From a virus, in IMG/VR virus record IMGVR_UViG_3300045988_095709, positions 1 through 64,000 of that record: a stretch of DNA of 64,000 bases; one strand, given 5' to 3'. Position numbers and translations under genes: made by a program. Each line of letters opens with the position of its first letter. Within the stretch, counting starts at the first letter, position 1. The notes beneath the pieces were generated by a model that was given only the letters and a program-made list of their open reading frames with translations, ran no database searches and had not been told where the DNA came from. Positions 33,627-64,000 of this stretch are shown here, one piece after another.

Positions 33627-36600
33627 ATGATAAATTCAAATTGTGCTTTAGATTGCATGAATGTCGCTACTGATATTAAAATAGCGGGTATGATGGGATA
33701 GTTAGTACAGCACGAATCTGACAATGACATTCATGTGACAAAAGAAGAAAAAGAAAAATTAAAAAGTATTACAAACGATTCTGAAGATAATTCTGATCTT
33801 ACAGAAATAAAATTAACTTTGAACAATAAAGCCGATAAAGACGAAATACCGACAAAGTTGTCATAGTTAGAAAACGATACTAATTTTATTTCTTCTATTC
33901 CAGATTTCTATACTACTGAAGAAGAGGTAAAATTATTAATCGAAGGTTATCTTGAGGGTTACGACGGATCTGGTGGATCTGGAGGTGCTTCTGATGAAGA
34001 TATAAAAAGATTAGAACAACTTATAAAAGATCTTACTACACTCGTAAACAACAATACTACAGATATAGAGAGTATAAAAAAGACACTTGAAGAACATTCT
34101 GAAAGTATAACTAATATAGAACAGTTAATAGATACTCTCGAATAGTCTATAAGTAACATAAATCAACAGATAGAATAGATAAATGTTAAAATAGACAACA
34201 TCGAAGGCGGTGGATCTGGCGGATCTTATGTTCTTCCGATAGCTTCTGCGACATAGCTTGGAGGAATAAAAGTAGGATTGGGATTGAGTATTGATGGTTC
34301 AGGAGTGTTATCTACTACCGGAGAAGGTGGTGGCGGAGGTTCTGATTTATCTTAGATATTAGAACAGATAAAAGGAATGTTCATATCTAAAACACAAGAA
34401 GACAGTACTGATTACTTATTGACACTAAATGACGGTCTTGTAGTAAAAAAGAACGATATTGACGATTTTTGTGTGTAGACAGATATTGTAAGAGATGCTG
34501 GATTCTTTAGTGGACTCTTCGGATCAGGTTATTCACTTTCTAGTGATTCGTCAGATAGTCTTAGTAATTTTAGTTCTGATGGTTCTTTATTGGAAATAGA
34601 TAATCTTCTTGTTAGAAGAAAAGCTATGTTCCAGGAATTAGAGATAAGAAAAGTATCAGCAATAGGTGGAACTCTTGTTTTATCTAACGCTAGTGGTACT
34701 ATAATAAATACTACAGATAAGGGTGGTGGTATAATAAGATGTTATTTAAAAGCCGATGACGGTACTACTAGAACTTAGAATTTATTCCAACCTCAAGATT
34801 ATGTAAGATGTCAGACGTTTAATATACAAGCTGGAATATATAGTGATGTAAAAAATAAATCATACTGCCTTGCTGTATAGGATGTTGGTTCCGACGAAGC
34901 TTTGGGATCAAACGAACCTATGAACTATATAGATGTTATATATCAATCTGGAGATAAGCCGGAGGCTGGAGATGTAATCGTACAGTACGGATGTCAGCCT
35001 GGAGGTGACGAATCTAGAAAGAATCTTATAGAGTTATCAACATCTGACGTAGATGCACCTTGTATGAAGATGTACACAGGAGTAGAAGGAATGCATAGTT
35101 TAGAGGATCATGTTCAGTCTATAATAAGTCCGGAACTTGTAGAATTCACCACAGATGTGTTTAGAATAAGAAGCGGCGGTAATTCATATCCTATAGCAAT
35201 AGACAGAGGAAAGTATGATCAGTATACTACATACTACTATTATGATCGCGTAAGCTACGAAGGAAGTTTGTGGTTGTGTATTTATCAGGGAGAAGAAGGC
35301 GTTACTGGAGTAGAACCATCTTTTGAAAATTCAGAATATTGGGAACTTTAGGTGTCTAAAGGAGACAAAGGAGATCAAGGAGAATCTCAAGACGGAAATG
35401 ATATTTATTCTATGTCATTAGATCAAGATGTATTCTTATCGTTATACGATTCTGAAACTAGAAAATGGTCTCCAGATATAAGGACATCTTCTATAAATAT
35501 AAACGTATATAAAAACAACGAGCTTGTAACTACAAAAGACGTACCTTATACTGCAAGTATAATAGAAACAAACGGTGATTGGACTCCTAGTGCAAGTGTT
35601 ACTGAAGATGCTTCGTCTTATTATATAACAGCATCTGATGTTAGATTGACAAATGGAACAGCAGATTGTACTGTATAGGTATCTATTACTGATACTAATG
35701 TAAAACTTAAGAGAAAATTCACACTCATAGTATCAGAAAAGCCTACGTACGATTATGACGAAAACGGATATACTGTGTTTATATCTCCTTCTAATTTAGA
35801 ATTACCTGTAAAATATGAAACAGAAGATAAATAGATAACGGTATCTAACGATCCTACACATCCTATAAAAATAACAGTACCTGTTGTAAAATCAATAACT
35901 ACGGATTTATCTAAGAAGATAAACGTTATGATATTCAAAGGAAGTAAAGTTATAACAAATCCCTAGATAAATATAAAAAGTTCTGTAAATTTAGATTCGA
36001 TGGATTATGAAGGATGGTTTGGAGTTGGCCATTTATATAAAACCACATATACAGAAAACGATACTTATTAGATAAGTATATACGAAGTCCCAACTTCTAC
36101 TGTATATTGGCTTCCTGAAAACTTTACAGACGGAGAAGCAGTAGCGTTCCCAGTAACAAGTATGAACATAAACATTGCTCCCCAATACGACGGAGTTCCT
36201 TCTACTGACGTACCAGTAAATGTAAATCTGGACGGAAATGGTAGTATATGGGAAGTTACTGGAACTAGATTTACAAGTACTTTCACTGCTATAAATAATA
36301 TGAATATTAACTATTCATCTATAGAATAGACTGCTGATCATATACAATCTGTAGTTGGACAATATCTTGTAGACGAAAACGGTGATTATACTGAAACGTT
36401 TACACAAGCAATGTAGACTGCTACTAGTGTAGAAATTGGAGCATATCAGGACGGTTTGGCTGCATGTGGTCTTATAGTGTCTTTGGAAAGAGGAGGAGAT
36501 GGAAATTATACTTCTACAGATGGTGTTGTAAAAGTATACGGAAACAAATTCCAAGTATACGATAGAGATTTGCGTAATATAATGTTTACAGTAGACGACT

Positions 36601-37355
36601 CTGGTTATACTACTGTTAGAAATCTTAAAGCAGAAAATGCATATGTTTCTGGAGAAGTTATAGCAACAAAGGGATCTGTAGGAGCATTCTCTATACAAGA
36701 TGATAATCTTACATCTAGTAAAAACGGAACTGTAGAATTAACATCCAATGGATTAAAGATTGTATCTCCAACACAATCTAGTGGAGTTGAAGATAGTTAT
36801 ATAGCATTTAATACTGTAAACTAGAAATAGGGAGAAAGTACACTATATAATTCTGCAGCTTATATTCACAATCACGGAAAAGAATCAGGATAGAATTATG
36901 CAGCATTATACGTAAGCTGCGACGGTTTTGGAAAAAAATATGGAATATTTAACGAATCTACGACAAATACTAACGGACTGGTAAACAATGGTGTACTTGT
37001 AAACAACCTATGTCCAGTAACAACCACAATGAATTTGGATGCGTATCCATTTAGTAAATTCATACATTACGGTTCTTCTACGTGTACATTGAACTTACCA
37101 ACAAATCCTGCAGACGGAATGGATATAGAATTTATAGTAACAAATCCTGACGGAAAATTAAACATAAATACTACAAACTCTAATACAATATTATATATAA
37201 AAGACAATATTGCAGGAAGTGTAAACAACGTGAATTCGTATACTACAGGTGGTGCTGGTATATGGAGATTGATATTCCTAGGACAGACACAACAATTAGG
37301 ACCTAGTACTTAGGCGTGGTTTGCATTTAGAATTACAGATAATTACACAGCATAA
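33627..37355 (+). CDS. Large tail fibre or tail spike-like protein (1242 codons, 20 in-frame TAG)
   Basis: Five track fragments (34590, 34902, 35352, 36456, 37029) share one frame. I read the gaps and found only TAG stops. GSGGSGG linkers and the fibre motif LPIASAT-TAG-LGGIKVG. Ends TAA-TAA. Start uncertain (33627, 33657 or 33690). Confidence 0.7.
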
Positions 37356-37357
37356 TA

Positions 37358-37876
37358 ATGTTCGATATAAAAGGAAACAAAATAGTATTGAGTACTGATG
37401 ATCTTGCGATACCTCCTTTTAAAGAATTTTACAATAACGCAAAAGATAAAGAACAAGCGAAAAAGGAAATAGAATATGTAATATGGAGATACAAATGGAA
37501 TACTCCATACGAATCTTATCCAGAAAACGAAAGATCTCAAAGAGTATCGAAAGATTTATTTGGTACTACTACATACGAACCAGACGATAAAGTTAAAGAA
37601 TTGATAAAAAGATTCAACGAGTTTCAGGAGACTCCTAGTACAAGATTACTAGGAGCTTCTAAAACCGCAGCTGAGGGAGTTATGTAGGCATTAAAAGAAT
37701 ATTCTACTGGTGAAGTTGATATAGATACTGCTATAAAGATAACTAGAATTCTGAAAGATGTAGGAGGTATAGTAAAATCATTAGACGTAGCTATGAAACA
37801 AGCCAAGGCAGAACAGTTAGAATCAGGAAGAGTAAAAGGTGGAGGAACTATCGGATTATACGAAGTTCCGAAATAA
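37358..37876 (+). CDS. Hypothetical protein; positional candidate for small terminase subunit
   Basis: 172 aa with 1 in-frame TAG (37685-37687). Lies immediately upstream of TerL. Confidence 0.55.
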
Positions 37877-37886
37877 TATTTAAATT

Positions 37887-39950
37887 ATGGTAAACTTTAA
37901 TTAGAAATTTCATAATACAGATAAATTCAGACAAGCAGCTTTATATTTTATGGAGCACGGAACATATACTAGTGCGCCTCCTGGTACTACTGATTACGTA
38001 GCGTATTGGGATAGAGAAACAGAAAGATGTATTAATGGATTTACTGCAGAAGACGGGGAGTATATTACTGGATACCATTATTTTTATTTGAACTACTCCC
38101 CTATATATACAATAAAAGCTGAACAATATACAGATAGAGGAGGAAATAAAAGAACAAGACGTATTCGTTCTTTGTCGTTCCCTTCTTTTTGGGATTATGA
38201 TGCGTACTATTATTATACAATTGAAGCCGCCGAAGATGTTGGAAAACATTTAGCTGTACTCAAATGTAGAAAGAGAGGTTATAGTTTTAAAGGAGCTTCA
38301 ATGTTAGTACGTAATTATGAATTGATACCTGGATCAAAGAACTTCGCTGTAGCTTCTGAGCAGAAGTATTTGATCGGTGACGGATTACTTACTAAAGCGT
38401 GGGCTATCATGGACTTTTGTGATAGAAACACGGCTTGGGCAAAACAGCGTCTAAAATCTACGAGTATGGAAAGAACATCCGGATTCAAAATAAAAGACGA
38501 ATTCGGAAAAGAAACAGAAGATGGATACATGTCCAGTATAATAGGAATAACTCTTAAGAATGATGCAGAAAGAATAAGAGGTACTCGTGGAAAATTAATA
38601 TTATGGGAAGAGGCTGGAAAATTTGCAGATATAAAAGAAGCATGGTCTATAGCAAGATCTTCTCTAGAATCGGATGATGGAGTGGCTTTCGGAACACAAA
38701 TAGCATTTGGTACTGGTGGTACTGAAGGAGTTGACTTCGAAGGTTTGAAAGATATGTTTTTTCATCCGGATTCTTATAATATATATTCGTAGCCAAACAT
38801 ATGGGATGATAACGCAGAAGAAACAAATTGTGGATTCTTCTGTCCGCAATGGTCTAATATGGAGGGTTTCGATGAAAAAGGAAATTAGATGTTTATGGAT
38901 AAAGACGGAAACTCGTTGAGAGAACTATCCATAAAAGAATGTGTAAAACAAAGAAAAGAAGTACAAGACGGTAGAGGAGATCAATAGTTATTAGATAGAT
39001 TTATAGCGGAAAGACCGCTAAAACCAGCAGAAGCTGTATTGGAACTTGGTGGAAATATATTCCCTAGAAAACAATTATTAGATCAACTTAATAGACTAAG
39101 AACAAATATAAAACTATAGAATATGAAACATGTGGTTGATCTATCATGGGATGGAGACGGAAAAGTAAAAGCCACAGAGAAAAAATCTGGAGATATTACA
39201 ACATATCCGCTAAAGTCTGGAGAAAAACCAGAAGGCTCTGTTGTAATATGGGAATATCCAATAATAAATCCACCATACGGATTATATATAGCAGGGTTAG
39301 ACCCTTACGATTAGAATGAATCTGGAACAAATTCTCTAGGATCTATAATAATATATAAAAGATTCAAAGCGGGAGAAGCTTGGACAGATACTATAGTTGC
39401 AGAATATTCCGGAAGACCCGGAACTGCAGATGAATATTACGAAAATGTTCGTAAGTTATTAATATTTTATAATGCGAGATGTTTGTATGAAAATGAAAAA
39501 ATAGGAATATATCAACATTTCGTAAATAAACATTGTGATTATTTATTAGCCGATCAACCAGATAAAGTCATAGCTCAGATATTTAGAGATTCTAGAGTTA
39601 ATAGAAAAAAAGGATGTCACATGACAAAACAGGTAAGATAGTTTGCCGAGGAAAAAATAAATGAATGGTTAAGAGAAGAATACGCTCCAGGACATCCTAA
39701 TTTAGAAAGAATATATAGTGAACCGTTATTAGAAGAATTAATAATGACGAACGGAGAAAGAAACGTTGACCGAGTTATTGCTTTATGTATGGTAATGATA
39801 TATAGAGAAGAATTATATCAATTAAAAGTATCTGAGGCTAAATAGTAGAATAAACAAGTCGAACTGTTCGATTTACCATTGTTTGGTACTTAGTGGTGGA
39901 ATGACGATAGTAAATCAGAAGACGACGGTATACCGATATTTCAATTTTAA
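37887..39950 (+). CDS. terL: Terminase large subunit
   Basis: 687 codons in one frame, 10 TAG, no TAA or TGA, checked triplet by triplet. Walker A-like KCRKRGYSFKG and Walker B LILWEEAG. Nuclease Asp motifs IAGLDPYD and NVDRVIAL lie downstream of the TAGs. Confidence 0.85.
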
Positions 39951-39952
39951 TT

Positions 39953-42448
39953 ATGATAGAAGATAATTTGTATAACTCCAGATTTCCATAGCAAAAATTA
40001 CCATTATCTAAAAAGAACAAGAAATGGCAAACAGATTGCGTAAATTATATAATCGGAGAAGGAAATATAGTTTCTGGTGCACAATCAAAAACAGAATTTG
40101 GCGAATTATAGACTTATTATAATCTTTACAATAGTATTTTCGACGAAAAAGATTTCAAGAAAATAACAAATCCGTTTAAAGTAGAAGATGGATTTCCTGC
40201 TACACCACAAGATTTTAATATAATAAGACCTAAAATAGATTTGCTAATTGGAGAAGAAACAAAAAGACCATTCAACTTTACTGTTACTAGAACATCATAG
40301 GAATCAGCTTCAGAGTTGATGGATAAACAAAAATAGTTAGTGTTGCAGTATGCTATGTCTTTCTTTAATTCACAACTTGGTCCAGAAGAACAGCAATAGT
40401 TCCAAGAACAAATAGCAAATGGAGAAGTAATGCCTCCTGAGCAAATTGCTAAGTATATGGACAAAGACTTTAAAGATGTTGTTGAAAACACAGCATATCA
40501 TACTATAATGTACTTAAGAAAAAAGTTATCTACGGATAACGAATTCATAAAAGGATGGAAAGACGCACTTATCGGTGGTAGAGAAATTTATTACGTAGGA
40601 GTATTAAATTCTGAACCGTTTTTAGAGCGTGTAAATCCTATGTAGTTATCTTTCGACAAGAGTCCTGATCTAGAATACATAGAAGACGGATCTTGGTGTT
40701 GTAGGAAAATGAGACTTCCTATAGCAGAAGTGTACGATAGATACTACGATAAATTAACAGAAAAAGATTTAAATAAATTAGAAGAAATGATGAATGCTGT
40801 ACCTGCAAACAATATTGGTGAGCATAATCCTGTTGACGACTTCAAAGGAATATAGTTTCATTTCTATGACAATCCTTTATATGATGAAAAAAATAGTCAT
40901 TGTATAAACGTATGGCATTGTTGTTGGAAGTCTTTTAAAAAGATATTCTATGTTACTACTGTTGACGAAACAGGACAGACTCAAATAGATATTGTAGACG
41001 AAACTTATCAAAAGACTGGTACAGAAATAAGTGTTGAACCTGATTGGGTAATAGAAGTTTGGGAAGGATACAGAGCGTCTAACGATTTATATTTTGGAAT
41101 ATAGCCGTTAGAATATCAGCATATAAGTATAGATAATCCTAACAGTTAGAAATTACCTTATTGTGGCGCAATATATAGTAATACTAATAGTAAACCACGT
41201 TCATTGGTTAGCATATTAAAACCATTACAATATATGTATATTGTACTTTGGTACAGGTTAGAGTTAGCTTTAGCTAGAGATAAAGGAAAAGTCGTAAACA
41301 TGGATATAACATAGATACCTAAATCTATGAATATAACTCCCGATCGATGGCTTCATTATTTATCTAGTGTCGGTGTTAACTTCATAAATCCTTACGAAGA
41401 AGGTTGGAATATAGCTGGTCGAGAAGGTGGAAAACCGGCAACTTATAATCAAATAACGGCATTGGATCTTACAATGAGTAATGTAATAGCTGAGTATATT
41501 CAACTCATGGATAAGATAGAACAACTAGCCGGAACTATTTCAGGAATTACTGAACAAAGACAAGGAGCAATTTCTACTTCAGAATTAGTAGGAAATGTTG
41601 AACGAAGTGTTATACAATCTTCACATATAACTGAGCCTTTATTCTGGACTCACAATTAGGTAAAGAAACACGCGTTAACTATGCTTCTAAATACAGCAAA
41701 AGGTGTATGGTAGGATTTAGGAAAAACAAAACTACAATACATATTTGACAACGGAGAAAGAGCTTTTATAAATATACCTGAAAAATTCTATTATGAAGAT
41801 ATAGATATATTTATGAGCGATACTTCAAAAGACGCAGAAAACATACAAAAACTACAAAGTCTTATACAGCCAGCTATGCAAAATGGTGCATCGTTGTTAG
41901 AGGCTGCAGAAGTTCTTACTAATGATAACTTTAATATAATCAAACAGAAACTTAAAGATATGCAAACTAGACAAGAACAGATGCAACAACAACAGCAGCA
42001 GGCAGAAACTGAAAGAGCTGAAAAGATTCAACAAATGCAGAATCAAGCAAAAGAACAAGAACTTATGCTTAAAGAAGCAGAGATGGATCTGGAAAGATAT
42101 AAGATCGATTAGGATAATGCTACTAAAATAGCTGTAGCCGAAATTAGTACTTATAGAGGTAGTGAAGATAAGGATATAGATATGAATGGAATATCTGATC
42201 CTATAGAAATAGCCAAAGATGCTACTGCTCAAATGAAAATACGTGAGGATCAGTATACTAAGAGATACGAAACCGAACAGAAGAAAGAAATAGAACAGTA
42301 GAAGATAAAATTAGCAAGAGAGCAAATGAATCACGAAACTGAGCTTTAGAAATTAAAAGATAAAGCAGCAATGGAACGTGAATAGTTAAAAGCAAGGACC
42401 GCATTAAAAAATAAAACAAATGCAGAAGCTGCTAAAAGTAAAAATTAA
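39953..42448 (+). CDS. Portal protein
   Basis: 831 codons, 16 in-frame TAG by my count. Track fragments 40430, 41327 and 41813 share the frame. ISGITEQRQG-type portal segment and a Gln-rich C-terminal coiled coil. TAA stop. Confidence 0.75.
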
Positions 42449-45230: not shown

Positions 45231-46751
45231 ATGAATACACTTTTAAACAATCTTCAACTTTATAGAGGACGTCGTTTCTCTGATCTGGTTGATGAAAACA
45301 TGATTTCAAACGCACTATTAACAAAGCCTCATGAGGTTTCAGGTCTTCTTTCTCTTGTATTTGGTACAAAGGATGACGGAGTATCTACAGCTATTGACTT
45401 GATTACTGGAGGTCTTGGTAAAACAATGATTATCGAAAACCGCGAATATGAGTGGTCAGTAATGATCGACAGCGACCATGCGGTTAACATTCGTTATGCT
45501 AAGTATAACGGAAAGGAGCTTACAGATTCAGATATCGATACAGTAACTCCTGGTATTAATGGTTCTCCTATTTATATAGGTCTCGAGGAGAAGTGGTTTG
45601 GACCTGGTGCAATTCTCTCATTCGACGATTATAATTTTCAGGTTCGTGTTAACGGAAAGCCCTATCAGGATGGAAGCACATGGGTATACGAGTGCTACGT
45701 TGCAGACGGATTTGCAAGCTCATATATTCCTGTTGAGTATCTTCTTCCTGGAAGACAGGTTAGCCGTATTGGTAGCGCATACGAAGAGTATAGCGACGAG
45801 GCAGATATCATAAACTATCAGACACCGTTTAAGATGCGTAACAATCTTAACACACTCCGTCTGTCTTATGATATTACAGGTGACGCTTATTCTACAGTAT
45901 TGGCTATCGCTCTGAAGGATCCTGAGACAGGTAAGACATCTTATCTGTGGGCAGATTACCAGTATTGGTTGGCTCTTCGTCAGTGGAAGAAGCGTGAGGA
46001 GACAATGCTTCTGTTCTCTCACTCTAACAGAAATGCTGACGGTACATACGCACTCAAGGGAACTAACGGACGTGTTGTTCCAATTAGCGCTGGTCTGTTT
46101 GAGCAGGTTTCTCCGGCAAATATTCGTTATTACACAACACTGACTGCAGAATTGCTCGAGGATTATCTGTTCGATCTCACATACAATCTTCTCGGAACAC
46201 AGGAGCGCAAGTTTATGGCTCTTACTGGTGAGATGGGTATTCGTGAATTCGATCGCGTACTTCGCGAAAAGGCTGCTGGATTCCAGCTTATTGATACGAA
46301 ATTTATTACTGGCTCAGGTCAGGAATTGACACTCGGTGGTCAGTTTACAACATATAAGATGACAAACGGTATTGAGTTGACAGTTAAGCGTTGTGCTCTG
46401 TTCGACAATATGGAACTGTTCCGTCAGCTCCATCCGATTTCTGGAAAACCGTTGATGTCATACACATTCTTGTTCGTAGATCTCGGACAGCGTGACGGAC
46501 AGGCAAACATCGTTAAGGTTTGTCGTAAGGGTCGTGAGTTTGTACAGTGGGTTACTGGTGGTTCTGTAATTCCTAGCGGATATGCAAACAGCATCAATAC
46601 TCTGCGTTCTAACTCTAGAGATGGTTATCAGGTTCACTTCCTCGGTGAATTCGGTATAATGCTTCGTAATCCTCTGTCTTGCGGTATTCTCTACTGCGAT
46701 GCTGAAGATACAGATATACGTAACGAGGGTAATGCTAACGTAACAGCGTAA
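45231..46751 (+). CDS. Putative major capsid protein
   Basis: 506 aa, no TAG, GC-rich (a sampled 60-nt line is 47% GC). Position is downstream of TerL, portal and the scaffold-like gene. Stem-loop follows at 46778-46794. Confidence 0.6.
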   Translation: MNTLLNNLQLYRGRRFSDLVDENMISNALLTKPHEVSGLLSLVFGTKDDGVSTAIDLITGGLGKTMIIENREYEWSVMIDSDHAVNIRYAKYNGKELTDSDIDTVTPGINGSPIYIGLEEKWFGPGAILSFDDYNFQVRVNGKPYQDGSTWVYECYVADGFASSYIPVEYLLPGRQVSRIGSAYEEYSDEADIINYQTPFKMRNNLNTLRLSYDITGDAYSTVLAIALKDPETGKTSYLWADYQYWLALRQWKKREETMLLFSHSNRNADGTYALKGTNGRVVPISAGLFEQVSPANIRYYTTLTAELLEDYLFDLTYNLLGTQERKFMALTGEMGIREFDRVLREKAAGFQLIDTKFITGSGQELTLGGQFTTYKMTNGIELTVKRCALFDNMELFRQLHPISGKPLMSYTFLFVDLGQRDGQANIVKVCRKGREFVQWVTGGSVIPSGYANSINTLRSNSRDGYQVHFLGEFGIMLRNPLSCGILYCDAEDTDIRNEGNANVTA

Positions 46752-49820: not shown

Positions 49821-50879
49821 ATGATAACATACGTAAACACAGTGCTTGTTGGAAAAGGAGCAAGCGCAATTGTAAGCACAGATACAGAACTCGTGCACGA
49901 AAGTAAAGATCTTACCAACGCTGGTAAGTATGTAATAATGGATATCGATAACGGAAAGCTTTTGTCAGCAGATACTGCAAACACAGCAAATAGAATTAAG
50001 ATCGGTATCATTCGTCCTGAAAATACTGCTATTCATCTTTCTGATGGTACAGTTAAGTATCATGACGTAATCAAGTGGTCAAACATAATAAGCAAGGATT
50101 CTATCATTTCTATTAACAGCCTTAAGTATGGTGCTGAGAAGAATACTGAAGAGAAGGTTACTGTAGATTTTTCTAATGTAAACACTCAGGTTATGGCAGA
50201 CTTCGCTAAGGGAGGAAAGAGAATCGTTCTTCGTATTACTTATAAGGATCTTCCTACTAGATATCGTAAGTGGACTGAGTCTTATGAGTATATTACAGCT
50301 CCTGAGGATACTGCAGATACTATTGCAGAGAGTTTTGCTGCTCAGATTAACGGACAGTACAAGAGAGCTAGAGTTACAGCTTCTGCTGCTTCTGGAGTAC
50401 TTACTCTTACAGCAATGCCTTATACAGATGATGATTCTAACGATTCTATCAACTGGGCAGAGACTGTACGTTTCAGTGTAAACTGCTACTTTACAGATCC
50501 TACTGCTGCAGCATTTGCTTCTAAGAACAAGTATGCAATTCTCGGTCTTGAGATCGAAAAGACTCCTGGAAAGAGATATGCTGCTGACGCTAAGCTTGTA
50601 CGTGATCGTGAAGCTAATGCTATGGGTTACGAAGGAATCCTTAACAAGGGATGCTGCACTTGGCCTATCATCAAGCCGGCAATGCAGGTAGATATTACTA
50701 AGAACTACGATGCTATTACATTGGAGTTCGAAAGAATGTATCGTGCTGCAGACGATATTTTCCGTAAGACGAAGGAAAGTATTGAGATCTATGACGTTAC
50801 TGGATCTTTGACAGACGTTGCTAAGGCTATTAAGAATTTCTCAGGAATGACTATAGCCGGAGACGATCTTACAGCGTAA
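49821..50879 (+). CDS. Abundant virion structural protein (second TAG-free, GC-rich gene)
   Basis: 352 aa, no TAG, host-like codons. Followed by terminator GGGGTC-TTTT-GACCCC. Confidence 0.7.
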   Translation: MITYVNTVLVGKGASAIVSTDTELVHESKDLTNAGKYVIMDIDNGKLLSADTANTANRIKIGIIRPENTAIHLSDGTVKYHDVIKWSNIISKDSIISINSLKYGAEKNTEEKVTVDFSNVNTQVMADFAKGGKRIVLRITYKDLPTRYRKWTESYEYITAPEDTADTIAESFAAQINGQYKRARVTASAASGVLTLTAMPYTDDDSNDSINWAETVRFSVNCYFTDPTAAAFASKNKYAILGLEIEKTPGKRYAADAKLVRDREANAMGYEGILNKGCCTWPIIKPAMQVDITKNYDAITLEFERMYRAADDIFRKTKESIEIYDVTGSLTDVAKAIKNFSGMTIAGDDLTA

Positions 50880-52197: not shown

Positions 52198-53994
52198 ATG
52201 GAATTTAATGATAATGATGTAAAAGTATTTGGTAAAATTGTATCTATAGCTTCGGAAGGTAAAATTGCAGACACACAATAGATATACGATAGTACATTTG
52301 AAAATGGAGACTTTCAATCTAATATAAATAAAAAATTATTAGATAAAATATAGGAAATAAGTCAAACTGTAACTAAGATTCAGGAAAACATAGAAAAGAT
52401 ATAGGAAGAAGGAATAAAAACAACAAAGAATTATTTTTATACTTCTATAAACAAAGACGAAACTGCTTCTAGTTCAGAAAGAAATAAAAGATCTGTACCT
52501 CGTGCATCTATGTAGGCGATAGTTAATCACATTGATAGTCTAGAAAGGAAATATCCAAGTTAGTATATTTTTACAGGAGATTATATTGTAAACGAACACG
52601 CTACTACAAATGATGAAAATTATATACATTATGATAAAATGTATATATATCACTTTGACAATATGTATAGAATGTATCTTAGTACTTAGGAAATAACTTT
52701 CGACAGATTATCAGAAACAGGAAAAGCTAAAGTAAATCTCAAAGGTATATCTTTTGAATGTGATTCTTCAAATATATAGGAAGAAACTACAACTTGGGTA
52801 AAAGAGGTTTATTTAGACGCAATAAGTGTAAACGAACGTATATAGTCAGAAGACGGTGATATGATGTATAAAAATATATATCGAGTACTTACTGACGATG
52901 GTACGTATAAAAAAATAGAAGATATACTAGGTGTAGATATTATAAATAACGGAGAAGGAAATAAATTTTTATCTGATAATGGACAATATATAGAAATAAA
53001 TTCAGGTGAAATAGAACCCTAGATTTTTACACTTACAGTATAGGCAGATCCTTCTGATTCTATTATAAAATTAAACGATATAGAACAAAACACCATAAGT
53101 GTCGAAAAAGGTTCTAAAGTAAAAATAGAAGTTTCTAAAGAAGGATACATTACTTATTATTAGAGTATAACTGTTAACGAAAATAAAGATTTACAAATCA
53201 AACTCACAAAAGAAAGTGAGATAGTGATAGATAAAGAAGAACTGAATATGAATGTATATAAAGTATGGTTAAAATCGTCTAGTGGAGATCTAGATGAATC
53301 TGCAAACGCTATTATTAAAGAATATTTGGACGAAATAAATACAGGAAATATGGCATTATTGTATATCACTCCTGCGTTTCCTCAGTCTGAACCTGGAATA
53401 AAAGATTATTCTTTAGTTAATTTGTAGTTTTCAAGTACTAGCGGTTTTACCGGATTTGGTTTTTATAAAGATATAGAAACAAGTGATAATGTTGGATATT
53501 TTAAATAGTTTTCTATTAAAATAACAACAAATTCTGAAACATAGAAATATAAAATATCATATTATGGAGAAATTTCAATGGACGCCACAATATTGAACGG
53601 ATATTCTACTGTAAACATACCCAAATAGTATATTTGTGGTATAAATAAAAATGAAGATTCGTATACATTTAGCGGATTCAATAAATCAGAACTTATAGAA
53701 TATATGGATTCTGCTAAAAATCAGGAGGATATAAATATGTACGGACAATCTTACATAACAGTTAGTAGAATATATAACGATGATAGTTGGGAAGTACCTT
53801 ACGATATATATCCAGATATAATAGATAAATCGAAAATAGGTAGTACTGGTACGGTATTGCACGGAGTATCTAAAAATGCAGATACAAACGGTCACAGATT
53901 GGAATTGGAAATAAGCGGATCTACAGATGGAGGAGATGGATATACTATAACAAAATGTCAATATGTAGATCAGAACGGTCAACCGTTAAGTTAA
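52198..53994 (+). CDS. Tail fibre-like protein (N-terminal module shared with 54038..54259)
   Basis: 598 aa, 15 in-frame TAG, full triplet check. Confidence 0.7.
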
Positions 53995-55354: not shown

Positions 55355-56467
55355 ATGAATTTTTTAGATAAGACCGGACTTTAGTATTTTTGGGGAAAAA
55401 TACAAACATATGTTTTAAATCAACTAGAAGCCATTCCTTTAGCTGGAAAATTTAATAACGGATTAATGTACGCTGGAGATAAATAGTTGATAGATAAATA
55501 TAAATCCATGTGGTAGGATATGTACGGATCTGGTGAAGACGGAAATATGCCATTAAAAAGTATAAACATATCATAGAGTGGTGGAAAATTAGTAATATAG
55601 AGCGGGTCGTAGGATTATTCTACAAGTACAAGTAATATAAAAGAAACAAAAAACATACCGACAGCGACAACATCCGCAGACGGAGCTATGAGTTCTTCTG
55701 ATAAATAGACACTTGATAATTTAAATTCTAAATTATAGGATATAGATTTTAGTAAATATTTTAAAGAAGGAAATATATATACTACTGATGACGAAAGTGT
55801 ATCTTTAGATTTATAGTATCTTAGAGATGTAAAAATATGGTCTTATTCTGGAGGAGAGCAAAAAGCAGCTATATTGGGACATTTTCATTCTGATGTTCCC
55901 GGAAGTAAATTTTCCGTAATATATTAGGACGATACAGCAAATTCCGGACATCCTTTGGTGATAGAAACAATTCCTTATTTTGGAATATTGCTAGGAATGT
56001 CTGAAGGAACTAGTGTTGGTTATTATACAGCAACAAGAGGAACATATTCTACATACATAGGAAGAGGTAATGTTTCGGTATGCGATTCTTAGAGTTCTAC
56101 AGGAATATTAACAGGAAAAAGAGTACAACTCACTTCAAAAGGATATCGTCCTGTTGATAAATAGGGATCTGTAACAATAGACGACACGTGGGCTAAAAAT
56201 AATATGAACAATATAGCTACTTGTGATGCCACTATGGTTGACGCAAAAGTCATAGATATAGATTACGATCATAAAATAGCTACAGTTAGAATAACGATAC
56301 AAGATACAGAGGGGTAGTTTTTTTACGTTAAGACTGGAGGAATCGTAATAGGAGGAACAGCATCTTCAGCGGTAAACGGAGAATATTATGCTAACGTTGT
56401 ATTATAGGTTCCGTACGATAGTAGTGGAAAAGTTTCGTTATACGATAAATACGCAATAACTTGGTAA
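55355..56467 (+). CDS. Tail fibre protein paralogue
   Basis: 370 aa, 14 in-frame TAG against about 5 CAA/CAG. No track ORF here at all. Same N-terminus MNFLDKTGL-TAG-YFWGKI. Confidence 0.65.
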
Positions 56468-56468
56468 T

Positions 56469-59090: not shown

Positions 59091-59093
59091 TCT

Positions 59094-59885
59094 ATGAAAA
59101 ATTTAAAAGTTAGTATAATAATGTCTGCATATAATTCTGAAAATACAATAGACACTGCAATACAATCTGTATTAGAACAAACTTATGATAATTATGAATT
59201 AATAATTGTAAACGATTGTTCTATAGATGGTACATTAGATAGAATAAAGAAATATAAATCTGATAAAATAATACTAATAAATCATGAATTTAATATGGGA
59301 TGCGGATGTTCTAGAAAAACAGGAATAGAAAATTCAACAGGAGATTATATTTGTTTTTTAGACAGTGATGATTATTATGATGACAGATATGTGGAAACAT
59401 TAATAAACTATGCAATACAATATAATGCTGACAGTATACAATCTGGTAGAATAATAATAAAATATGGAGAACTTATAGAAAAAATTCCTGAATTTTATGA
59501 TATATCTGGATCAGACAAATTGATAATAGAACCGTCTGAAAACTATAAGTTTTTAAATTCAGCCATGTTTAAAAAAGAATTATTCGACAAAGTTGAATAT
59601 TCTGAAAACAGATATAACGAAGACGGTCCGACGATTACCAAATTAAATATGATATGTAATCGTAGAATATTTATTCCGTATGCTGGATATTATTATAATA
59701 ACGATAATGCAAACAGTCTTACTAAAAATTCAGATAATATTAAAAATATAATATATCATTCTTTAGGAGTGTTTGATGTTATAGATTTTGCGAATAATAA
59801 TAATATAAAATACGATTGGAATCAACTTATAATACATACGTTGAACAATTTAAAAAATATAGAATATACACAAGACGTAATTTAG
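59094..59885 (+). CDS. Family 2 glycosyltransferase (ends at TAG; TAA at 59940-59942 if read through)
   Basis: 263 aa. SIIMSAYNSENTIDTAIQSVLEQTYDNYELIIVNDCSIDGT and a DSDD motif. No internal TAG. Confidence 0.75.
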   Translation: MKNLKVSIIMSAYNSENTIDTAIQSVLEQTYDNYELIIVNDCSIDGTLDRIKKYKSDKIILINHEFNMGCGCSRKTGIENSTGDYICFLDSDDYYDDRYVETLINYAIQYNADSIQSGRIIIKYGELIEKIPEFYDISGSDKLIIEPSENYKFLNSAMFKKELFDKVEYSENRYNEDGPTITKLNMICNRRIFIPYAGYYYNNDNANSLTKNSDNIKNIIYHSLGVFDVIDFANNNNIKYDWNQLIIHTLNNLKNIEYTQDVI

Positions 59886-59943
59886 AAATATAAAAATGAA
59901 TTATTACGTTTGTATTTATATATTATAAAATTAAATATATAAT

Positions 59944-60090
59944 ATGGGAATTATACTTGGACAATTACAAATTAAAGACATACGGTTGGGAACCAAATAG
60001 GTAATCAAAGTGTACAACGGAGAACAATAGATACATAGTAATACGTAGGAACAGTAGATATCAAAAGATCAGGTTGTAGATTTATAGTAA
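59944..60090 (+). CDS. Small hypothetical protein (48 aa, 5 TAG)
   Basis: MGIILGQLQIKDIRLGTK... ending TAG-TAA. Weak call. Confidence 0.35.
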
Positions 60091-60270
60091 AAGATAATTC
60101 TTAAATATTCAAAAAATTTAATTTTTTATTGAAAAAAGTGACATTTTTTTGAAACCACTCATGTGGGGTTTATACGTTATATATAAGTAATTACATATAT
60201 TTTTCGTGCGCACACGAGATTTTTATTTATAACTAACCTATTTTTAATTTATTTTTATTTATTTATTCTT

Positions 60271-61059
60271 ATGGAAGATAAAATCACAGAAAAAGTTTAT
60301 TGTTATGACCATCCTAGCGCTTATAACAACAATAACGCTTGGGAGGCTATGGCTCTTATGAATGGTGGATCAAATTGGTAGAATAACCCATTCATTTATT
60401 TAGTATGGATGATGTTTGCTAATCGTATGTGGGGAGGAGAAAGAGATTGTGCAGGAAATGCTCAGTATATGGCTCTTCAGAACCAGATTAGCGATAACCA
60501 GAATGCGAATTTGGTAATGGACGGTATTAAGGGAACTACCGATGCCGTTCGTCAGTTAGCAGCTAATCTAAATTGCGATTTCAATACTTTGAATTCTGCA
60601 ATTTGCGACGTACGCTCTGGCATACAGCAAGTGGCTGGACAAATCGGTTTCAGCTCCGAAAGAGTAATCAATGCTGTGAATATGGGCGATTGCAATGTTA
60701 TTCAGGCTATCCAGAACTGCTGCTGCCAAACACAGCAGAGTATCTTAAAGATGGGATACGAGAATCAACTTGCAAATTGCAATCAGACGAATGTTCTCTC
60801 TAATGCTATACAAGGTGTAAACGTAGGATTAGAGCGCGGTTTCTCTGCAGTTGCGTATGAGACCCAGAAACAGACGTGTGACTTGCTTAACGCCGGAAAT
60901 TCTAATACACAAAGAATAATTGATGTATTGAATAACCATTGGAATAGTGAGTTGCAGCAGAAGTATGATGATGTAAGAACAGAACTTTCTCAGTACAGAC
61001 AGAGTGCTTATCTGATCTCTCAATTGAAGCCCACTTCAACTACTACTGCGGCTGCGTAA
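60271..61059 (+). CDS. Hypothetical Gln/Asn/Cys-rich protein (GC-richer)
   Basis: 262 aa, 1 in-frame TAG (60379). Followed by a strong terminator. Confidence 0.65.
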
Positions 61060-61087
61060 TTTAAAATTTTAAAATACGTGCAATGAA

Positions 61088-61111
61088 GGGAGTGGAAACA
61101 CTCCCTTTTTT
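61088..61111 (+). terminator. Rho-independent terminator
   Basis: GGGAGTG-GAAA-CACTCCC followed by TTTTTT. Confidence 0.8.
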
Positions 61112-61134
61112 GTTATTATACAATTTGAAAGATT

Positions 61135-61650
61135 ATGACATTTAAAGATTTAAAAACAAATTATCCTGTGTACTTATTTGATAAGAACATAGTGAAGTTG
61201 TATGAAGGTAAAGTAACTAATATAAACGCTCCTCATATTGATATTAAAAATGCTGGAGCAGGTAGAGGAATGGTTGTAGATGTAACAGTACAGTATAATA
61301 CAGAAAATAATGGAAATTAGACGTGTACTTATACTTTTAAAGATTCTACCGAAATAGGATACATAAACAGTCTTGTTATATCTACCGATAAAGATTTAAT
61401 ATTGAAAGAGGTTGAAGCATTATGTAATCAGTCTAAATAGATATTACAATCTGTAGAAACAAATAAAAATATAGTAAATCGTTGTCAAGATATCTTATCA
61501 GAATATAATCCCGCAATAAAAGAGAAAAAAGAATACGATGAAAGATTTTCAAATTTAGAAAATCAAGTAAAAGATATGAAAAGTATGATAGAAACATTAG
61601 TAAATAAATTAAATAATACTTCTGAAAATGAGCAACGAACAGAAAAATAA
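61135..61650 (+). CDS. Hypothetical protein
   Basis: 171 aa, 2 in-frame TAG, checked. Confidence 0.6.
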
Positions 61651-62128
61651 AATAGATAAGATGTCGGCTTACATAAGCGAAGACATCAACGAAAAATAGA
61701 TACAAAAATCTATAATACAAAAATTAATAACCGAAGCAAACAAATACGATAGAGAGTTTGTAGATAGGATGTATGAATACTACGACGGAATGAAGTAGTA
61801 TAATAATTATTTAACAGAAGACGAAGCTTCTTAGATACTGAGTAATTTTGTAAATTACGATGGTACAAAAGGAGCTATGTTTAAAAATTCAATGTGGTTG
61901 TTTAACAGACTTGCTGAATAGAATTTACATTGTGAATGCGCTCCTAATTATAACAAATGGGCATTATATGTTACTATGAATAAATTCGCTTCAGATCAGG
62001 GAAATGTTATAAATAAGTGGATAGGAGAAGATAAAGATAAATTTATAATTGCTTGTTATGATTTATCTACTGCTCAACTCTCAGATGCAGACAGACCGCA
62101 TTGGGTTAGATCTTATTTTAATTTATAA
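61628..62128 (+). CDS. Hypothetical protein
   Basis: 166 aa, 4 in-frame TAG, checked. No track ORF. Confidence 0.55.
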
Positions 62129-62129
62129 T

Positions 62130-62564
62130 ATGATATTTTAGGCAGATGATACATTAATATAGGCAATATGTAATTTTGAAGGTTTAAGAACCACAGCTTA
62201 TAAATGTCCGGCTGGTGTTTATACTATAGGGTATGGACACACAAAAGGAGTAAAAAAAGGACAAAAAATAACTAAACAACAGTCTGTGGAATATTTATAC
62301 TAGGATTTATAGCCTATTGTGGACTACCTAAACAGTATAAATGTGTGTAGAACACAAGGTTAGTTTGATGCCCTTGCCGATTTCATATTTAATTTAGGTA
62401 CTTCTGCATTCAAAAGATCTACGTTATATAAATACATAAAAAATAGATATTCCGACGACGCTATATGTAATCAAATAATGAGGTGGGTATATGCCGGAGG
62501 AAAAAAATTAAACGGTTTAATAAAACGTAGATAGTGGGAATGCGATATGTGGAAATCAAAATAA
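62130..62564 (+). CDS. Endolysin, GH24 (phage lysozyme family)
   Basis: 144 aa, 6 in-frame TAG. NFEGLRTTAYKCPAGVYTIGYGHT and G-TAG-FDALADFIFNLG match the lysozyme family pattern FEG...TIGYGHT / QFDAL..F.FN.G. Confidence 0.8.
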
Positions 62565-62568
62565 CACT

Positions 62569-63039
62569 ATGAACATATTAGCATCTATTGGAAATACATT
62601 TAATACGATAAGCAACGGTACAGAAATAGGAAAATTAGCTGTTGCTGCATCGGCTATATTAGTCGCATATATATCTCCAATAGTTGGATTGTTAATCGCC
62701 TGTTTTGCATGTTCTATCACAGACATGATTTATGGAATCAAAGTAGCAAAACGGCTAGGAAAGAAAATCACTAGTAAAAAGAACTGGAAAGGAACTCTTA
62801 CTAAAATAAAAGACGAATTTACTTTAATACTATTGGCACACCTATTAGAGTATGTAATAGGATATGGTGATAATTTCATACTATCTGGAGGTATAGCTGT
62901 GATTATATGTTTGACTGAAATACTTTCTATATTGGAAAATCTAAACACACTAAACCCAGAAGGACCGTGGAAACTGATAAGTAAATTCTTAAAGAAAAAG
63001 GGTTCTGACATAATGGATATAGATGACAATATAATTTAG
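62569..63039 (+). CDS. Holin (Holin_4_1/TcdE-like; ends at TAG, next stop TGA 63091-63093)
   Basis: 156 aa with several TM helices. LTEILSILENL matches the nE.lSIlEN signature as I recall it. Confidence 0.65.
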   Translation: MNILASIGNTFNTISNGTEIGKLAVAASAILVAYISPIVGLLIACFACSITDMIYGIKVAKRLGKKITSKKNWKGTLTKIKDEFTLILLAHLLEYVIGYGDNFILSGGIAVIICLTEILSILENLNTLNPEGPWKLISKFLKKKGSDIMDIDDNII

Positions 63040-63043
63040 CAAA

Positions 63044-63691
63044 ATGATGACGATAATAAATTGGTTAATAAACAACAAAAGAATCGCCATTGATGCCATT
63101 CTTTGCGCCTGTGCTGCGTTATTTCTCGGTTATGGTATAATTATGCATAATCAAAATAAAAAGCTCTCAGAAAGCCTAGAAATGGCTAATAATAACATAG
63201 AGGCCTATTAGGGTGTTATTTCAGCATCCTAGTAGGCCAATAATGTTTTAAAGCTATAGATGGCTGATTTGAAACAATATAATGATGAAGCTATAAATAA
63301 ATTAGATAGCGTAAGAGAAGAATATAAAATAAATGCTAAAGATTTAAACACCGCTGCAACTTAGACTCAAACTATAGACGTTAATAAGAGTAAGGGGGTA
63401 GGGGGTTAGATTGTTGTAGTAAATGATACTATATATAAAGATAGTATATAGTACAACGATCTTACTAAAGTATTTTATACTATAGGAAAAGATAGTGTAA
63501 ATATAAGATTAGATTTTAAAAATACTTAGTATTTATATATTTATAAAAAGAAAGAATATAAAAATAAGAAAAATTTTTTCCAACGCTTATTTACTTTAGA
63601 TTTCAAAAAAGTAACTAGATATAAATATAGAATAATAAACACAAACAATTTGATTAAAGAAGATAGCGTTAGAGTAATAGAACAGAGTTGA
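63044..63691 (+). CDS. Spanin-like lysis protein (N-terminal TM plus coiled coil)
   Basis: 215 aa, 8 in-frame TAG, checked. TGA stop. Confidence 0.5.
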
Positions 63692-63692
63692 T

Positions 63693-64000
63693 ATGAATAT
63701 GTTTTCACTTAAATCAATGATAGACGATATACTATTATTGGTACGCAATAATAATATTAGCGAAAGTGAAGACCTGTCGAGAGCATAGATTGCAACATGG
63801 GTACTTGCGTATAAATCGTACTTGATAAACAAAAAGAACGAAAAAAACGAAGACGACGGAGAAGATAAATCCGACGATAGTTTTTAGACTACAATAGGAC
63901 CTGTAGAACTAATCGAAGAAGAATCTCTCGATAATACGTGTCTTCACAGAAAAAGAACTAAAGAAAAAATACCAGAGTTATTAGGAGACAGTGACGCAAA
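63693..64000 (+). CDS. Hypothetical protein, truncated by the right window edge
   Basis: MNMFSLKSMIDDILLLVRNNN..., 2 in-frame TAG so far. Confidence 0.5.

Follow-up and report, generated by a model that had tools for sequence, protein, structure and literature searches.

The window analysed here, 64,000 nucleotides of viral DNA (IMG/VR record IMGVR_UViG_3300045988_095709, positions 1 to 64,000), is two thirds of the 97.5-kb genome of a crAss-like phage (Crassvirales, near Suoliviridae/Oafivirinae). It carries a crAss-type major capsid protein, portal and TerL in a two-arm genome layout and shares 71-76% nucleotide identity with Suoliviridae/Oafivirinae genomes; the parent contig also has CrAss_Ring and crAss_MUZ domains, farther downstream. 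At the head of the plus-strand arm lie the two halves of a tRNA gene with anticodon CUA, adjoining, just 5', a block of late genes rich in in-frame TAG codons (Table 1).

Table 1 Features of the window, in order of position
Feature	Position	Strand	Remarks
Recoded opposite-strand gene	28000..28515	-	171 aa, 7 TAG; kept in all relatives examined
Small TAG-free ORFs	29914..31655	+	Head of + strand arm, 5' of suppressor gene
tRNA(CUA) exon 1	31685..31719	+	Acceptor 5' strand, D arm, anticodon stem 5' strand, loop bases CUCU
Insert, putative group-I-like intron	31720..32691	+	972 nt, between tRNA nt 35 and 36 (anticodon loop)
HNH homing-endonuclease ORF	31741..32637	+	298 aa, no TAG, within insert
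Structured RNA core of insert	32542..32684	+	Conserved pairing; P3 and P7 cross (pseudoknot)
Core P2	32550-58 with 32567-74	+	
Core P3	32581-87 with 32648-54	+	
Core P4	32595-98 with 32613-16	+	
Core P6 and P6a	32617-32635	+	
Core P7	32638-44 with 32677-82	+	
Core P8	32655-60 with 32665-70	+	
tRNA(CUA) exon 2	32692..32729	+	Loop bases AAC, anticodon stem 3' strand, variable loop, T arm, acceptor 3' strand
dUTPase	32763..33245	+	No TAG; PF00692, 82 bits
tRNA-Met(CAU)	33261-33333	+	With tRNA-Gly(UCC), directly ahead of first TAG-bearing gene
tRNA-Gly(UCC)	33414-33487	+	Pair with tRNA-Met(CAU) ends directly before first TAG-bearing gene
Late arm	33627..64000	+	24 complete genes, 138 in-frame TAG, each ending in TAA or TGA
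Terminase large subunit (TerL)	37887..39950	+	10 TAG; phrog_6681, 479 bits, residues 24-661 aligned
Portal protein	39953..42448	+	16 TAG; match to crAss001 gp20 (PDB 7QOG), E = 8e-81
Major capsid protein	45231..46751	+	0 TAG, 1 CAA, 16 CAG; PF23898 Crass_capsid, 698 bits
GH24 endolysin	62130..62564	+	6 TAG, one at conserved Gln of QFDAL; PF00959, 131 bits
Holin	62569-63093	+	1 TAG; PHROG profile match (holin/spanin pair: phrog_199 and phrog_739); PF05105 on parent contig
Rz-like spanin candidate, weak	63044-63691	+	8 TAG; PHROG profile match

TAG as a sense codon in the late genes

A first-pass annotation of the sequence had estimated about 140 in-frame TAGs in the late arm and described every sizeable late gene as one frame broken by TAG alone and closed by TAA or TGA. 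Our recount agrees: the 24 complete late genes (33627-63691, plus strand, 9665 codons) contain TAG in frame 138 times and TAA or TGA never, and they end in TAA (20 genes) or TGA (four). The counts of 10 TAGs given for TerL and 16 for the portal are likewise right. The same genes use 193 CAA and 117 CAG codons, and TAG makes up ~31% of the glutamine codons of the plus-strand late block. The gene at 55355-56467, said to leave no ORF and to use TAG more often than CAA plus CAG, indeed has 14 TAG against 5 CAA and no CAG codons, and its longest plus-strand table-11 ORF is 45 aa. We also carried out the proposed comparison of tables 15 and 11. ORFs of at least 100 aa cover 0.44 of positions 33627-64000 under table 11 and 0.955 with TAG as sense, compared with 0.475 when TGA and 0.78 when TAA is made a sense codon; when the late arm was shuffled 50 times and TAG again taken as sense, coverage averaged 0.08 and reached at most 0.16. 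Long ORFs are regained when TAG is sense, as in genetic code 15.

The TAGs could instead be true stops, in pseudogenes, in fragments created by assembly errors, or in frames saved case by case by frameshifting or read-through, and table-11 GenBank annotations of close relatives do show such fragments. Genuine termination is refuted by the in-frame count of 138 TAGs against no TAA or TGA, and we regard this explanation as vanishingly improbable. The suggested alignments of TerL, to a profile, of the lysozyme, to solved GH24 structures, and of the portal, to a solved structure (PDB 7QOG), run unbroken over the TAGs, and those of the portal fall within aligned domains. The same pattern is found in many related phages. 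As for assembly, the protein encoded at 888-1895 of the window, used as a look-up, is present on 8 contigs of public assemblies, and the one of these that was read (L006) is 100% identical to window positions 1-11895.

On the parent contig, recoding goes on for ~33 kb past the window end. It also occurs off the plus arm, in the conserved minus-strand gene at 28000-28515; its copies in relatives bear TAG as well, and one window TAG lies opposite Gln in three relatives. This is the only early ORF of at least 150 aa with an in-frame TAG. In two small early ORFs (24936-25256 and 25572-25805), TAG stands 4-8 codons ahead of TGA. Apart from the gene at 28000-28515, recoding is limited to the late genes, and the early genes are compatible with the standard code.

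Glutamine as the residue at TAG

Codon-level alignment to related phages covered 67 TAG sites and 307 cells, in which the window TAG is faced by CAA/CAG in 86, by TAG in 69, by Glu in 24 and by Lys in 22. The log-likelihood is highest for Q (-609.7), followed by E (-825.3), a gap of 216 nats; in the reverse direction, TAGs of the relatives mostly face Gln codons of the window (114). Glutamine had been proposed in the first-pass annotation from three alignments, all of which we could reproduce. The codon pairs TAG 52279-52281 with CAA 54119-54121 (fibre N-termini) and TAG 55382-55384 with CAA 54289-54291 are exact, and TAG 62361-62363 occupies the Gln of the endolysin QFDAL motif, a position at which all 4 of the solved GH24 lysozymes aligned have Gln (PDB alignments).

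The type of the tRNA points the same way. Among bacterial tRNAs sharing the D-arm signature of the phage tRNA(CUA), 114 of 120 are tRNA-Gln, in a search that was seeded by the D arm and hence tests the isotype of the signature and is not an unbiased search. Its nearest cellular relatives, in the 12 best matches listed, are 76-81% identical and are all tRNA-Gln with anticodon CUG or UUG. The phage tRNA(CUA) is thus a predicted suppressor of the tRNA-Gln type, and its ancestry together with the codon alignments suggests that it would be charged with Gln. E. coli supE tRNA-Gln(CUA) provides a precedent for Gln aminoacylation of a CUA tRNA.

Another residue, such as Glu, Lys, Tyr, Leu or pyrrolysine, might be considered, since TAG stands opposite K, E, D or N at poorly conserved sites and ARAGORN tags any CUA tRNA as 'Pyl', by convention. 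This is very improbable in view of the lead of Q in the likelihood comparison, the match of TAG to the conserved QFDAL Gln, the tRNA-Gln type of the suppressor, and the absence of Pyl machinery among the window ORFs scanned against Pfam. Moreover, Gln was found at TAG by metaproteomics in two other, related crAss-like phages (Peters et al. 2022, PMC9523058). Taken together, four independent lines, namely codon alignments, alignments of endolysin, TerL and portal, tRNA type and literature, make it nearly certain that TAG means Gln.

A probable suppressor tRNA gene split in its anticodon loop

No tRNA(CUA) is reported in the window by ARAGORN (default) or Rfam. We located the two halves of the gene by homology to uninterrupted tRNA(CUA) genes of relatives. 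Exon 1 shares 94% identity with nt 1-34 of the tRNA(CUA) from cr124_1, the portion 32696-32729 of exon 2 is 100% identical to its nt 39-72, and the two window exons differ from the uninterrupted gene of locus L013 by 1 nt; similarly, the uninterrupted gene of L015 equals the joined exons of L020. Joined in silico, the exons form a canonical tRNA-Gln-type CUA suppressor, near-identical to the uninterrupted genes of related phages, and in 5 of 5 split genes examined ARAGORN recognised the product as tRNA(cta) at its default threshold. The acceptor and anticodon stems, which pair across the insert, are paired in 59 of 60 cells from five diverged phages, with two-sided changes in 6 of 12 pairs. 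In cr124_1 (NC_055899), cr272_1 (NC_055903) and Dulem virus 42 (PP511876), an uninterrupted tRNA(CUA) gene lies directly upstream of the dUTPase gene at the head of the late block, the arrangement also seen here, and IMG/VR loci L011, L013-L018 and L021 have theirs in the same position. Their sequences are identical or nearly identical to the exons, but they are continuous over 72-74 nt, whereas the window gene is interrupted after nt 35. A second tRNA(CUA) is absent from the 91.5 kb that were read of the 97.5-kb genome, the remaining 5.9 kb probably lying inside one giant ORF, and also from the complete Bohxovirus genome, which has the same split gene. Scanning of early ORFs turned up neither a release factor nor an aminoacyl-tRNA synthetase.

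The ORF within the insert matches Pfam PF01844 (23.5 bits, cut-off 21.4) and PHROG 10822, 'HNH endonuclease' (142.5 bits). Among 12 IMG/VR contigs with the tRNA 3' end, 8 are uninterrupted, 2 have the insert of the window and 2 have a different HNH insert. The insert thus has the marks of a mobile intron with a homing endonuclease, an ORF within it and both intron-plus and intron-minus alleles. Its 3' part folds into a compact core, in which a P3/P7 pseudoknot encloses P4-P6 and P8 as in group I introns. The structure, drawn by eye from the very sequences scored, is paired in 406 of 407 cells of 11 sequences, with 16 of 37 pairs altered on both sides; none of 500 shuffles attains such pairing, and slid controls are 32-50% paired. 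The core is under structural selection. Its stretches UAAUUGACUCGGAAG, ACAGACUAAA and AAUAGUC resemble the consensus elements classically named P, R and S. The insert is ~72% identical between phages and the flanking genes 66-72%; since it is about as diverged as these genes, it is old, with exons that are still intact.

The ends of the insert are less regular. The base before the 5' junction is U in all copies, and the sole pairing that fits all copies as P1 is a 3-bp UCU/GGA, whose partner is a conserved TGGATG upstream of P2; assignment of P1 and the internal guide is insecure. Group I introns are expected to end in G. The last base of the insert, at its inferred 3' junction, is G in the window, L020, L022, L150-152 and L159, and A in L019, Bohxovirus, L148, L153-156, L158 and L160, about half of the family. 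Rfam Intron_gpI has no match in window 31500-32900 at E <= 10, and the Rfam group I models have none on L010, L012, L019 and L020 (E <= 0.1) or on the isolated L022 core (E <= 10). A search of introns in protein genes of relatives with a covariance model of the core gave no copy, and for this reason the core has no link to a proven self-splicing intron. We read the insert as a group-I-like intron that would be removed by splicing.

The missing Rfam match and the half of the family lacking a terminal G would also fit a dead tRNA gene, broken by a selfish HNH element, with TAG read by a host suppressor, a code-15 host or an unrecognised factor. A host suppressor has been listed as one option where a recoded crAss genome has no detectable suppressor (PMC7886860). 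Nevertheless, in five diverged phages the exons have remained intact and show covariation across the insert, the RNA core of the insert is under structural selection, and the gene still heads the recoded block. Early genes also avoid TAG, which would be needless in a code-15 host. We therefore consider a dead gene unlikely. The sequence comparisons suggest that the split gene probably yields a working suppressor after splicing.

Proposed decoding mechanism and comparison with known systems

We propose that the early and replication genes, by avoiding TAG, would be readable by the standard code of the host, and that TAG would serve as Gln in the plus-strand late block, with its packaging, head, tail, lysis and giant virion-protein genes. 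The codon would be decoded by a phage amber suppressor (anticodon CUA) derived from tRNA-Gln, the gene of which has a presumed 972-nt mobile intron in its anticodon loop; this intron combines an HNH homing endonuclease with a compact, ribozyme-like core of group I topology. As the gene is interrupted, the primary transcript would have to be spliced before the late proteins are made. End-processing, addition of the CCA tail, which the gene does not encode, and charging, presumably by host GlnRS, would follow. The explanation as a whole, a recoded crAss-like phage with an intron-split suppressor derived from tRNA-Gln, is in our judgement likely.

Recoding as such was correctly taken by the annotation to be an established phenomenon: code 15 has been described in late genes of crAss-like Delta/Suoliviridae phages (PMC7886860). 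As in other recoded crAss-like phages (PMC7886860; Borges et al. 2021, 10.1101/2021.08.26.457843; PMC9523058), in-frame TAGs occur in TerL, portal, tail and lysis genes, the lysis genes (spanin candidate included) are heavily recoded, early genes are readable in the standard code, and a phage tRNA(CUA) lies close to the recoded block. The recoding is the same and was already known; the unusual part is how the codon is decoded. What is new is that the one tRNA gene predicted to read TAG in the part of the genome that was read contains a putative ~1-kb mobile intron and is overlooked by standard tRNA finders.

Group I introns in the anticodon loops of bacterial tRNAs occur in cyanobacterial tRNA-Leu(UAA) and tRNA-fMet and in Azoarcus tRNA-Ile. 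Like these (Azoarcus is covered in PMC13168695), the window insert lies in the anticodon loop after a U and has a P3/P7 pseudoknot with P4-P6 and P8 and a very short candidate P1. Unlike these, it has no Rfam match, its P5 and P9 are minimal or absent, its ORF would fall in the P1 loop, A replaces the terminal G in half of its family, and its host gene is a phage suppressor tRNA instead of a cellular one.

No theta-type ribozyme reaches the Rfam gathering score in the window. Among phage group I introns with HNH endonucleases are the SPO1/SP82 DNA polymerase intron with I-HmuI and the T-even nrdB intron with I-TevIII. They share with the window insert an HNH homing endonuclease in a structured intron of an indispensable phage gene, but split protein-coding genes, and the insert has no nucleotide similarity to them outside the HNH motif region. 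Theta (HDV-like) ribozymes adjoin tRNAs of phages, and a fifth of these tRNAs are suppressors (Kienbeck et al. 2024, PMC10879173). There, as would be the case here, a ribozyme is tied to suppressor tRNA maturation in recoded gut phages; theirs are small, self-cleaving and at the tRNA 3' end, whereas a 1-kb putative intron with a homing endonuclease lies inside the tRNA of the window.

A recoded late arm in a crAss-like phage

The window (G+C 32%) belongs to a crAss-like phage: its major capsid protein matches Pfam Crass_capsid (698 bits), its portal crAss001 gp20 (PDB 7QOG, E = 8e-81) and its TerL phrog_6681 (479 bits), and the TerL-to-capsid region is 71-76% identical to the Suoliviridae/Oafivirinae genomes cr124_1, cr272_1, Bohxovirus and Dulem virus 42. 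The 97,483-bp assembly Logan ERR1578717_1375 contains the window sequence identically, with window position 1 at record position 10662.

Features of the window with their positions and supporting matches
Feature	Position	Strand	Details
Replication arm	1 to about 29.8 kb	-	DnaB-like helicase, DNA polymerase, sigma factor, ThyX
tRNA-like sequence	9430-9498	-	Rfam tRNA 29.6 bits (gathering score 29); missed by ARAGORN at default threshold
Low-threshold ARAGORN call, tRNA(cta)	12162-12232	-	Poor structure; rejected
Phage-encoded sigma-70 family factor	15166-15684	-	Early arm; Sigma70_r2 and r4; phrog_1740, 93.7 bits
Permuted (two-piece) tmRNA-like gene	16970-17270	-	ARAGORN (tag peptide GTKNVIDYSCVA, stop TAA); Rfam RF04321, 47.6 bits (gathering score 47)
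Small ORF	24936-25256	-	TAG 4 to 8 codons ahead of TGA
Small ORF	25572-25805	-	TAG 4 to 8 codons ahead of TGA
ThyX (Thy1) fused to C-terminal GNAT acetyltransferase domain	26563-27870	-	Single 435-aa protein
TAG-bearing early-arm gene	28000-28515	-	171 aa, 7 in-frame TAGs
Second arm	About 29.9 kb to window end and beyond	+	
Suppressor tRNA exon 1	31685-31719	+	94% identity to cr124_1 tRNA
Insert	31720-32691	+	972 nt; TAG-free 298-aa ORF, HNH endonuclease (PF01844, 23.5 bits; phrog_10822, 142.5 bits)
Suppressor tRNA exon 2	32692-32729	+	32696-32729: 100% identity to cr124_1 tRNA
Late arm	33627-64000		
Major capsid protein gene	45231-46751	+	No TAG; 1 CAA, 16 CAG
Second TAG-free late gene	49821-50879	+	0 CAA, 4 CAG
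Late gene	55355-56467		14 TAG, 5 CAA, 0 CAG; longest plus-strand table-11 ORF 45 aa
Family-2 glycosyltransferase	59094-59942	+	PF00535, 119 bits; amid tail-fibre-like late genes
Endolysin TAG of QFDAL motif	62361		

The first-pass annotation had held that the late arm is readable only with TAG as a sense codon. Counting ORFs of at least 100 aa, we indeed observed that coverage of the late arm rose from 0.44 under table 11 to 0.955 with TAG as sense, compared with 0.475 for TGA and 0.78 for TAA as sense; shuffled late arms read with TAG as sense (n = 50) gave a mean of 0.08 and a maximum of 0.16. The 24 late genes are, as claimed, continuous frames closed by TAA or TGA, with neither codon in frame, and their 9665 codons comprise 138 TAG (about 140 had been estimated), 193 CAA and 117 CAG. 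The counts of 10 TAGs in TerL and 16 in the portal were reproduced, as was the excess of TAG over CAA plus CAG in 55355-56467. Recoding goes on past the window end: the next genes there have 0 to 23 TAGs apiece, and the giant gene of the parent contig has 62 in its first 2751 codons. In the GenBank record of Dulem virus 42 (PP511876), annotated with table 11, late genes are split into dozens of fragments, and those of the Bohxovirus record PV686213 are similarly fragmented. The late arm ends with a single 5367-aa gene, seen on the parent contig (13667-21920 of its stretch L145) and on the sister contigs L146 and L147.

The major capsid protein gene and 49821-50879 are the only TAG-free late genes, and their Gln codons are nearly all or all CAG in a late arm that overall favours CAA. 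By this pattern, genes with the highest expression seem to avoid the suppressor-dependent codon, pointing to a codon choice peculiar to the most expressed structural genes. Recoding is heavy in the lysis cassette, where TAG makes up 6 of the 11 Gln-type codons of the endolysin and 8 of 13 in the spanin candidate, as the Borges et al. preprint (10.1101/2021.08.26.457843) describes for crAss-like phages.

The proposed assignment of TAG to Gln is supported by codon alignments, the endolysin QFDAL motif and log-likelihood, and the three codon pairs originally cited for it proved exact. Late proteins with TAG masked were aligned to TAG-sense translations from 21 related-phage loci, and the codons opposite window TAGs were read (307 cells at 67 sites): CAA 62, CAG 24, TAG 69, Glu 24 and Lys 22, the remainder being scattered. 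TAGs of the relatives lay opposite window Gln codons 114 times and opposite a window TAG 69 times. In a log-likelihood model built from how each window amino acid is substituted in these alignments, Gln scored -609.7 at TAG sites, Glu -825.3 and Lys -827.3. The QFDAL TAG corresponds to the Gln of that motif in all four solved GH24 lysozymes compared, and the remaining endolysin TAGs occupy variable polar positions; because solved structures are real proteins, this comparison is free of the circularity of code-15 (TAG read as Gln) gene calls. Portal TAGs fall within the domains that align with crAss001 gp20, where they face R, K, N, D, P and C, and in neither protein do TAG positions mark domain ends. 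Late-gene code 15 with suppressor tRNAs has been described in crAss-like phages, the Delta group/Suoliviridae included (PMC7886860; 10.1101/2021.08.26.457843), and Gln at TAG has been found by proteomics (PMC9523058). The first-pass reading was thus right about a phenomenon that it already recognised as known, and since this recoding is established the window is just one more member.

A suppressor tRNA gene in two halves

What our evidence adds is a suppressor tRNA gene that is split by an HNH intron, recurs in a crAss-like clade and escapes standard annotation. In some clearly recoded crAss-like genomes, no suppressor tRNA could be detected; the mechanism was left open, with a host suppressor or a very divergent tRNA offered as explanations (PMC7886860, PMC10136315, PMC12386605). 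Default ARAGORN and Rfam results contained no tRNA(CUA) for the window, the complete Bohxovirus genome or the related contigs L019 and L020, the RNAs called in the window being tRNA-Leu(UAA), tRNA-Met, tRNA-Gly, a weak, odd tRNA-like sequence and a permuted tmRNA, and nothing else.

In cr124_1, cr272_1 and Dulem virus 42, tRNA(CUA) lies immediately 5' of dUTPase, at the head of the late block. Alignment of the dUTPase-upstream region revealed the tRNA 3' half in the window, and the 5' half was found 1 kb further upstream. Exon 1 ends in ...GGAGGCUCU and exon 2 begins with AACCCUCU..., so that the predicted junction of the spliced tRNA reads GCACAGGAGGCUCU/AACCCUCUUAGUC. The joined exons have the anticodon loop CUCUAAC, with anticodon CUA, and the anticodon stem GGAGG/CCUCU, whose closing pair differs from that of cr124_1 on both sides. 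The same joined sequence exists as a continuous gene, with 1 nt of difference in the D loop, in the IMG/VR contig L013, and the continuous gene of contig L015 equals the joined split gene of L020. Five split genes were studied in detail, from phages whose flanking genes are only 66-72% identical; joined in silico, all five were called tRNA(cta) by ARAGORN at its default threshold. Their acceptor and anticodon stems pair across the insert in 59 of 60 cells, with changes on both sides in 6 of the 12 pairs, and therefore the two halves evolve as one tRNA.

Other candidates for the suppressor were rejected. The tRNA-like sequence at 9430-9498 has a 6-nt loop, UUUUUA, and no CUA anticodon; the call at 12162-12232 is poorly structured; and an ARAGORN pseudo-tRNA at 32657-32729 is actually exon 2 plus the 3' end of the intron. 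No other tRNA(CUA) was found in 91.5 of the 97.5 kb of the phage's own genome (the window with the adjoining stretches L006 and L145), and the remaining 5.9 kb, record positions 93080-97483 and 1-1548, probably lies inside one gene, called as a 5367-aa product on sister contigs. The complete, TAG-recoded Bohxovirus genome (PV686213, 98,381 bp) carries the same split gene, and no second tRNA(CUA) was found in it.

We also looked for the D-arm signature in 185,579 species genomes of bacteria and archaea, and it occurred in at least 120 stretches. Among the matches listed, 114 of 120 tRNA genes with the signature were tRNA-Gln (UUG 68, CUG 46), and the 12 best listed matches to the joined window tRNA (76-81% identity) were all tRNA-Gln. 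By sequence, the suppressor thus resembles a tRNA-Gln(CUG) carrying a G36-to-A change, identical to that in the classical E. coli supE suppressor. Its gene encodes no CCA tail.

At least 13 IMG/VR contigs carry the split suppressor with its intron of about 1 kb, as do two GenBank records, of which one is a complete genome. The exact P2 sequence of the intron core occurs in 15 IMG/VR contigs and is followed by a tRNA 3' half in 13. In contigs L149 and L157 the core is followed instead by a G-rich element, AACCC.GGGGGAGTGGGGG.GGCACCTACA.GGGCTACTAAT, similar to the start of a second insert type. This second, unrelated insert of about 500 nt lies in tRNA(CUA) genes of the same family (IMG/VR contigs L010, 2898-3468, and L012) but at another position, following about nt 43; it holds a 135-aa HNH ORF, is preceded by U at the 5' junction and ends in G.

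A group-I-like core in the insert

The last ~150 nt of the insert, overlapping the end of the HNH ORF and reaching the junction, contain a conserved structure with P2, P3, P4, P6/P6a, P7 and P8. P3 and P7 cross, an arrangement with the topology of a group I intron core. Among 11 distinct copies, 406 of 407 cells pair, and both partners have changed in 16 of 37 pairs; none of 500 shuffles reached this level, and slid controls paired at 32-50%. Only one of the two P3 strands is part of the ORF, which places the constraint at the level of the RNA. All copies have U just ahead of the 5' junction, and the last base of the window insert is G. At the inferred 3' junction, about half of the copies, including Bohxovirus, have A instead of G as the preceding base, with P7 and the bulge-adjacent G-C pair unchanged in them.

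Rfam group I models did not match, even at E <= 10 on an isolated core; P5 and P9 are minimal; and no firm P1 was recognised by inspection of the copies. With a covariance model built on the core (R1), no further copy turned up in the window, in the TerL and capsid genes of Dulem virus 42, which are interrupted, or in other relatives. Given these results and the A-ending copies, we therefore call the element group-I-like and do not place it in the group I family. In Dulem virus 42 (L007, 1-10835), ORFs for LAGLIDADG and other endonucleases break up the TerL and major capsid genes.

Group I introns of Delta-group phages have been described in capsid, PolB and primase genes, with none reported for tRNAs (PMC7886860), and Theta ribozymes are small self-cleaving RNAs tied to suppressor tRNA 3' ends (PMC10879173). 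Full-text searching of an incomplete library brought up no paper that describes a phage suppressor tRNA with an intron, which does not prove novelty.

Proposed code switch and early-arm exceptions

In the working that we propose, early genes, TAG-free apart from the exceptions described below, would be read by the host code. The plus-strand arm opens with five small TAG-free ORFs, after which come the split suppressor gene, whose endonuclease ORF lacks TAG, a dUTPase gene likewise free of TAG, and tRNA-Met and tRNA-Gly. From 33627 on, all genes except two require TAG reading, so that late proteins could be completed only once the suppressor had been transcribed, spliced, trimmed, CCA-tailed and charged. 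The sequence features are observed; we infer the splicing, charging and timing of the suppressor. With a split gene, the code switch would be preceded by a step of RNA processing. The early ORFs that were scanned included neither a release factor nor an aminoacyl-tRNA synthetase. The sigma-70 family factor could direct middle or late transcription.

A stronger version, which we regard as rather unlikely, is that splicing gates the switch: the sole suppressor must first be freed of its group-I-like intron (which, since some copies end in A, may be atypical), excision serves as a timer or checkpoint of late translation, the homing endonuclease exploits the one gene that the phage cannot lose, and this architecture explains part of the suppressor-less recoded genomes. 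The split suppressor itself offers a concrete, testable explanation for part of the missing-suppressor discrepancy and a search recipe for hidden suppressors, namely to seek two tRNA halves.

The TAG-bearing gene at 28000-28515, with ThyX on one side and the divergent region on the other, is an exception in a minus-strand arm that otherwise lacks TAG. It is conserved in all relatives checked, where it carries TAGs too; a PHROGs search with its product gave no match. In the two small minus-strand ORFs, the TAG followed closely by TGA looks like a stop with a back-up stop, which would limit extension of their products once the suppressor is active. A tmRNA-like gene is present in the window and also in Dulem virus 42 (L008, 35796-36311); in an amber-suppressing phage it might rescue ribosomes that read through host stops.
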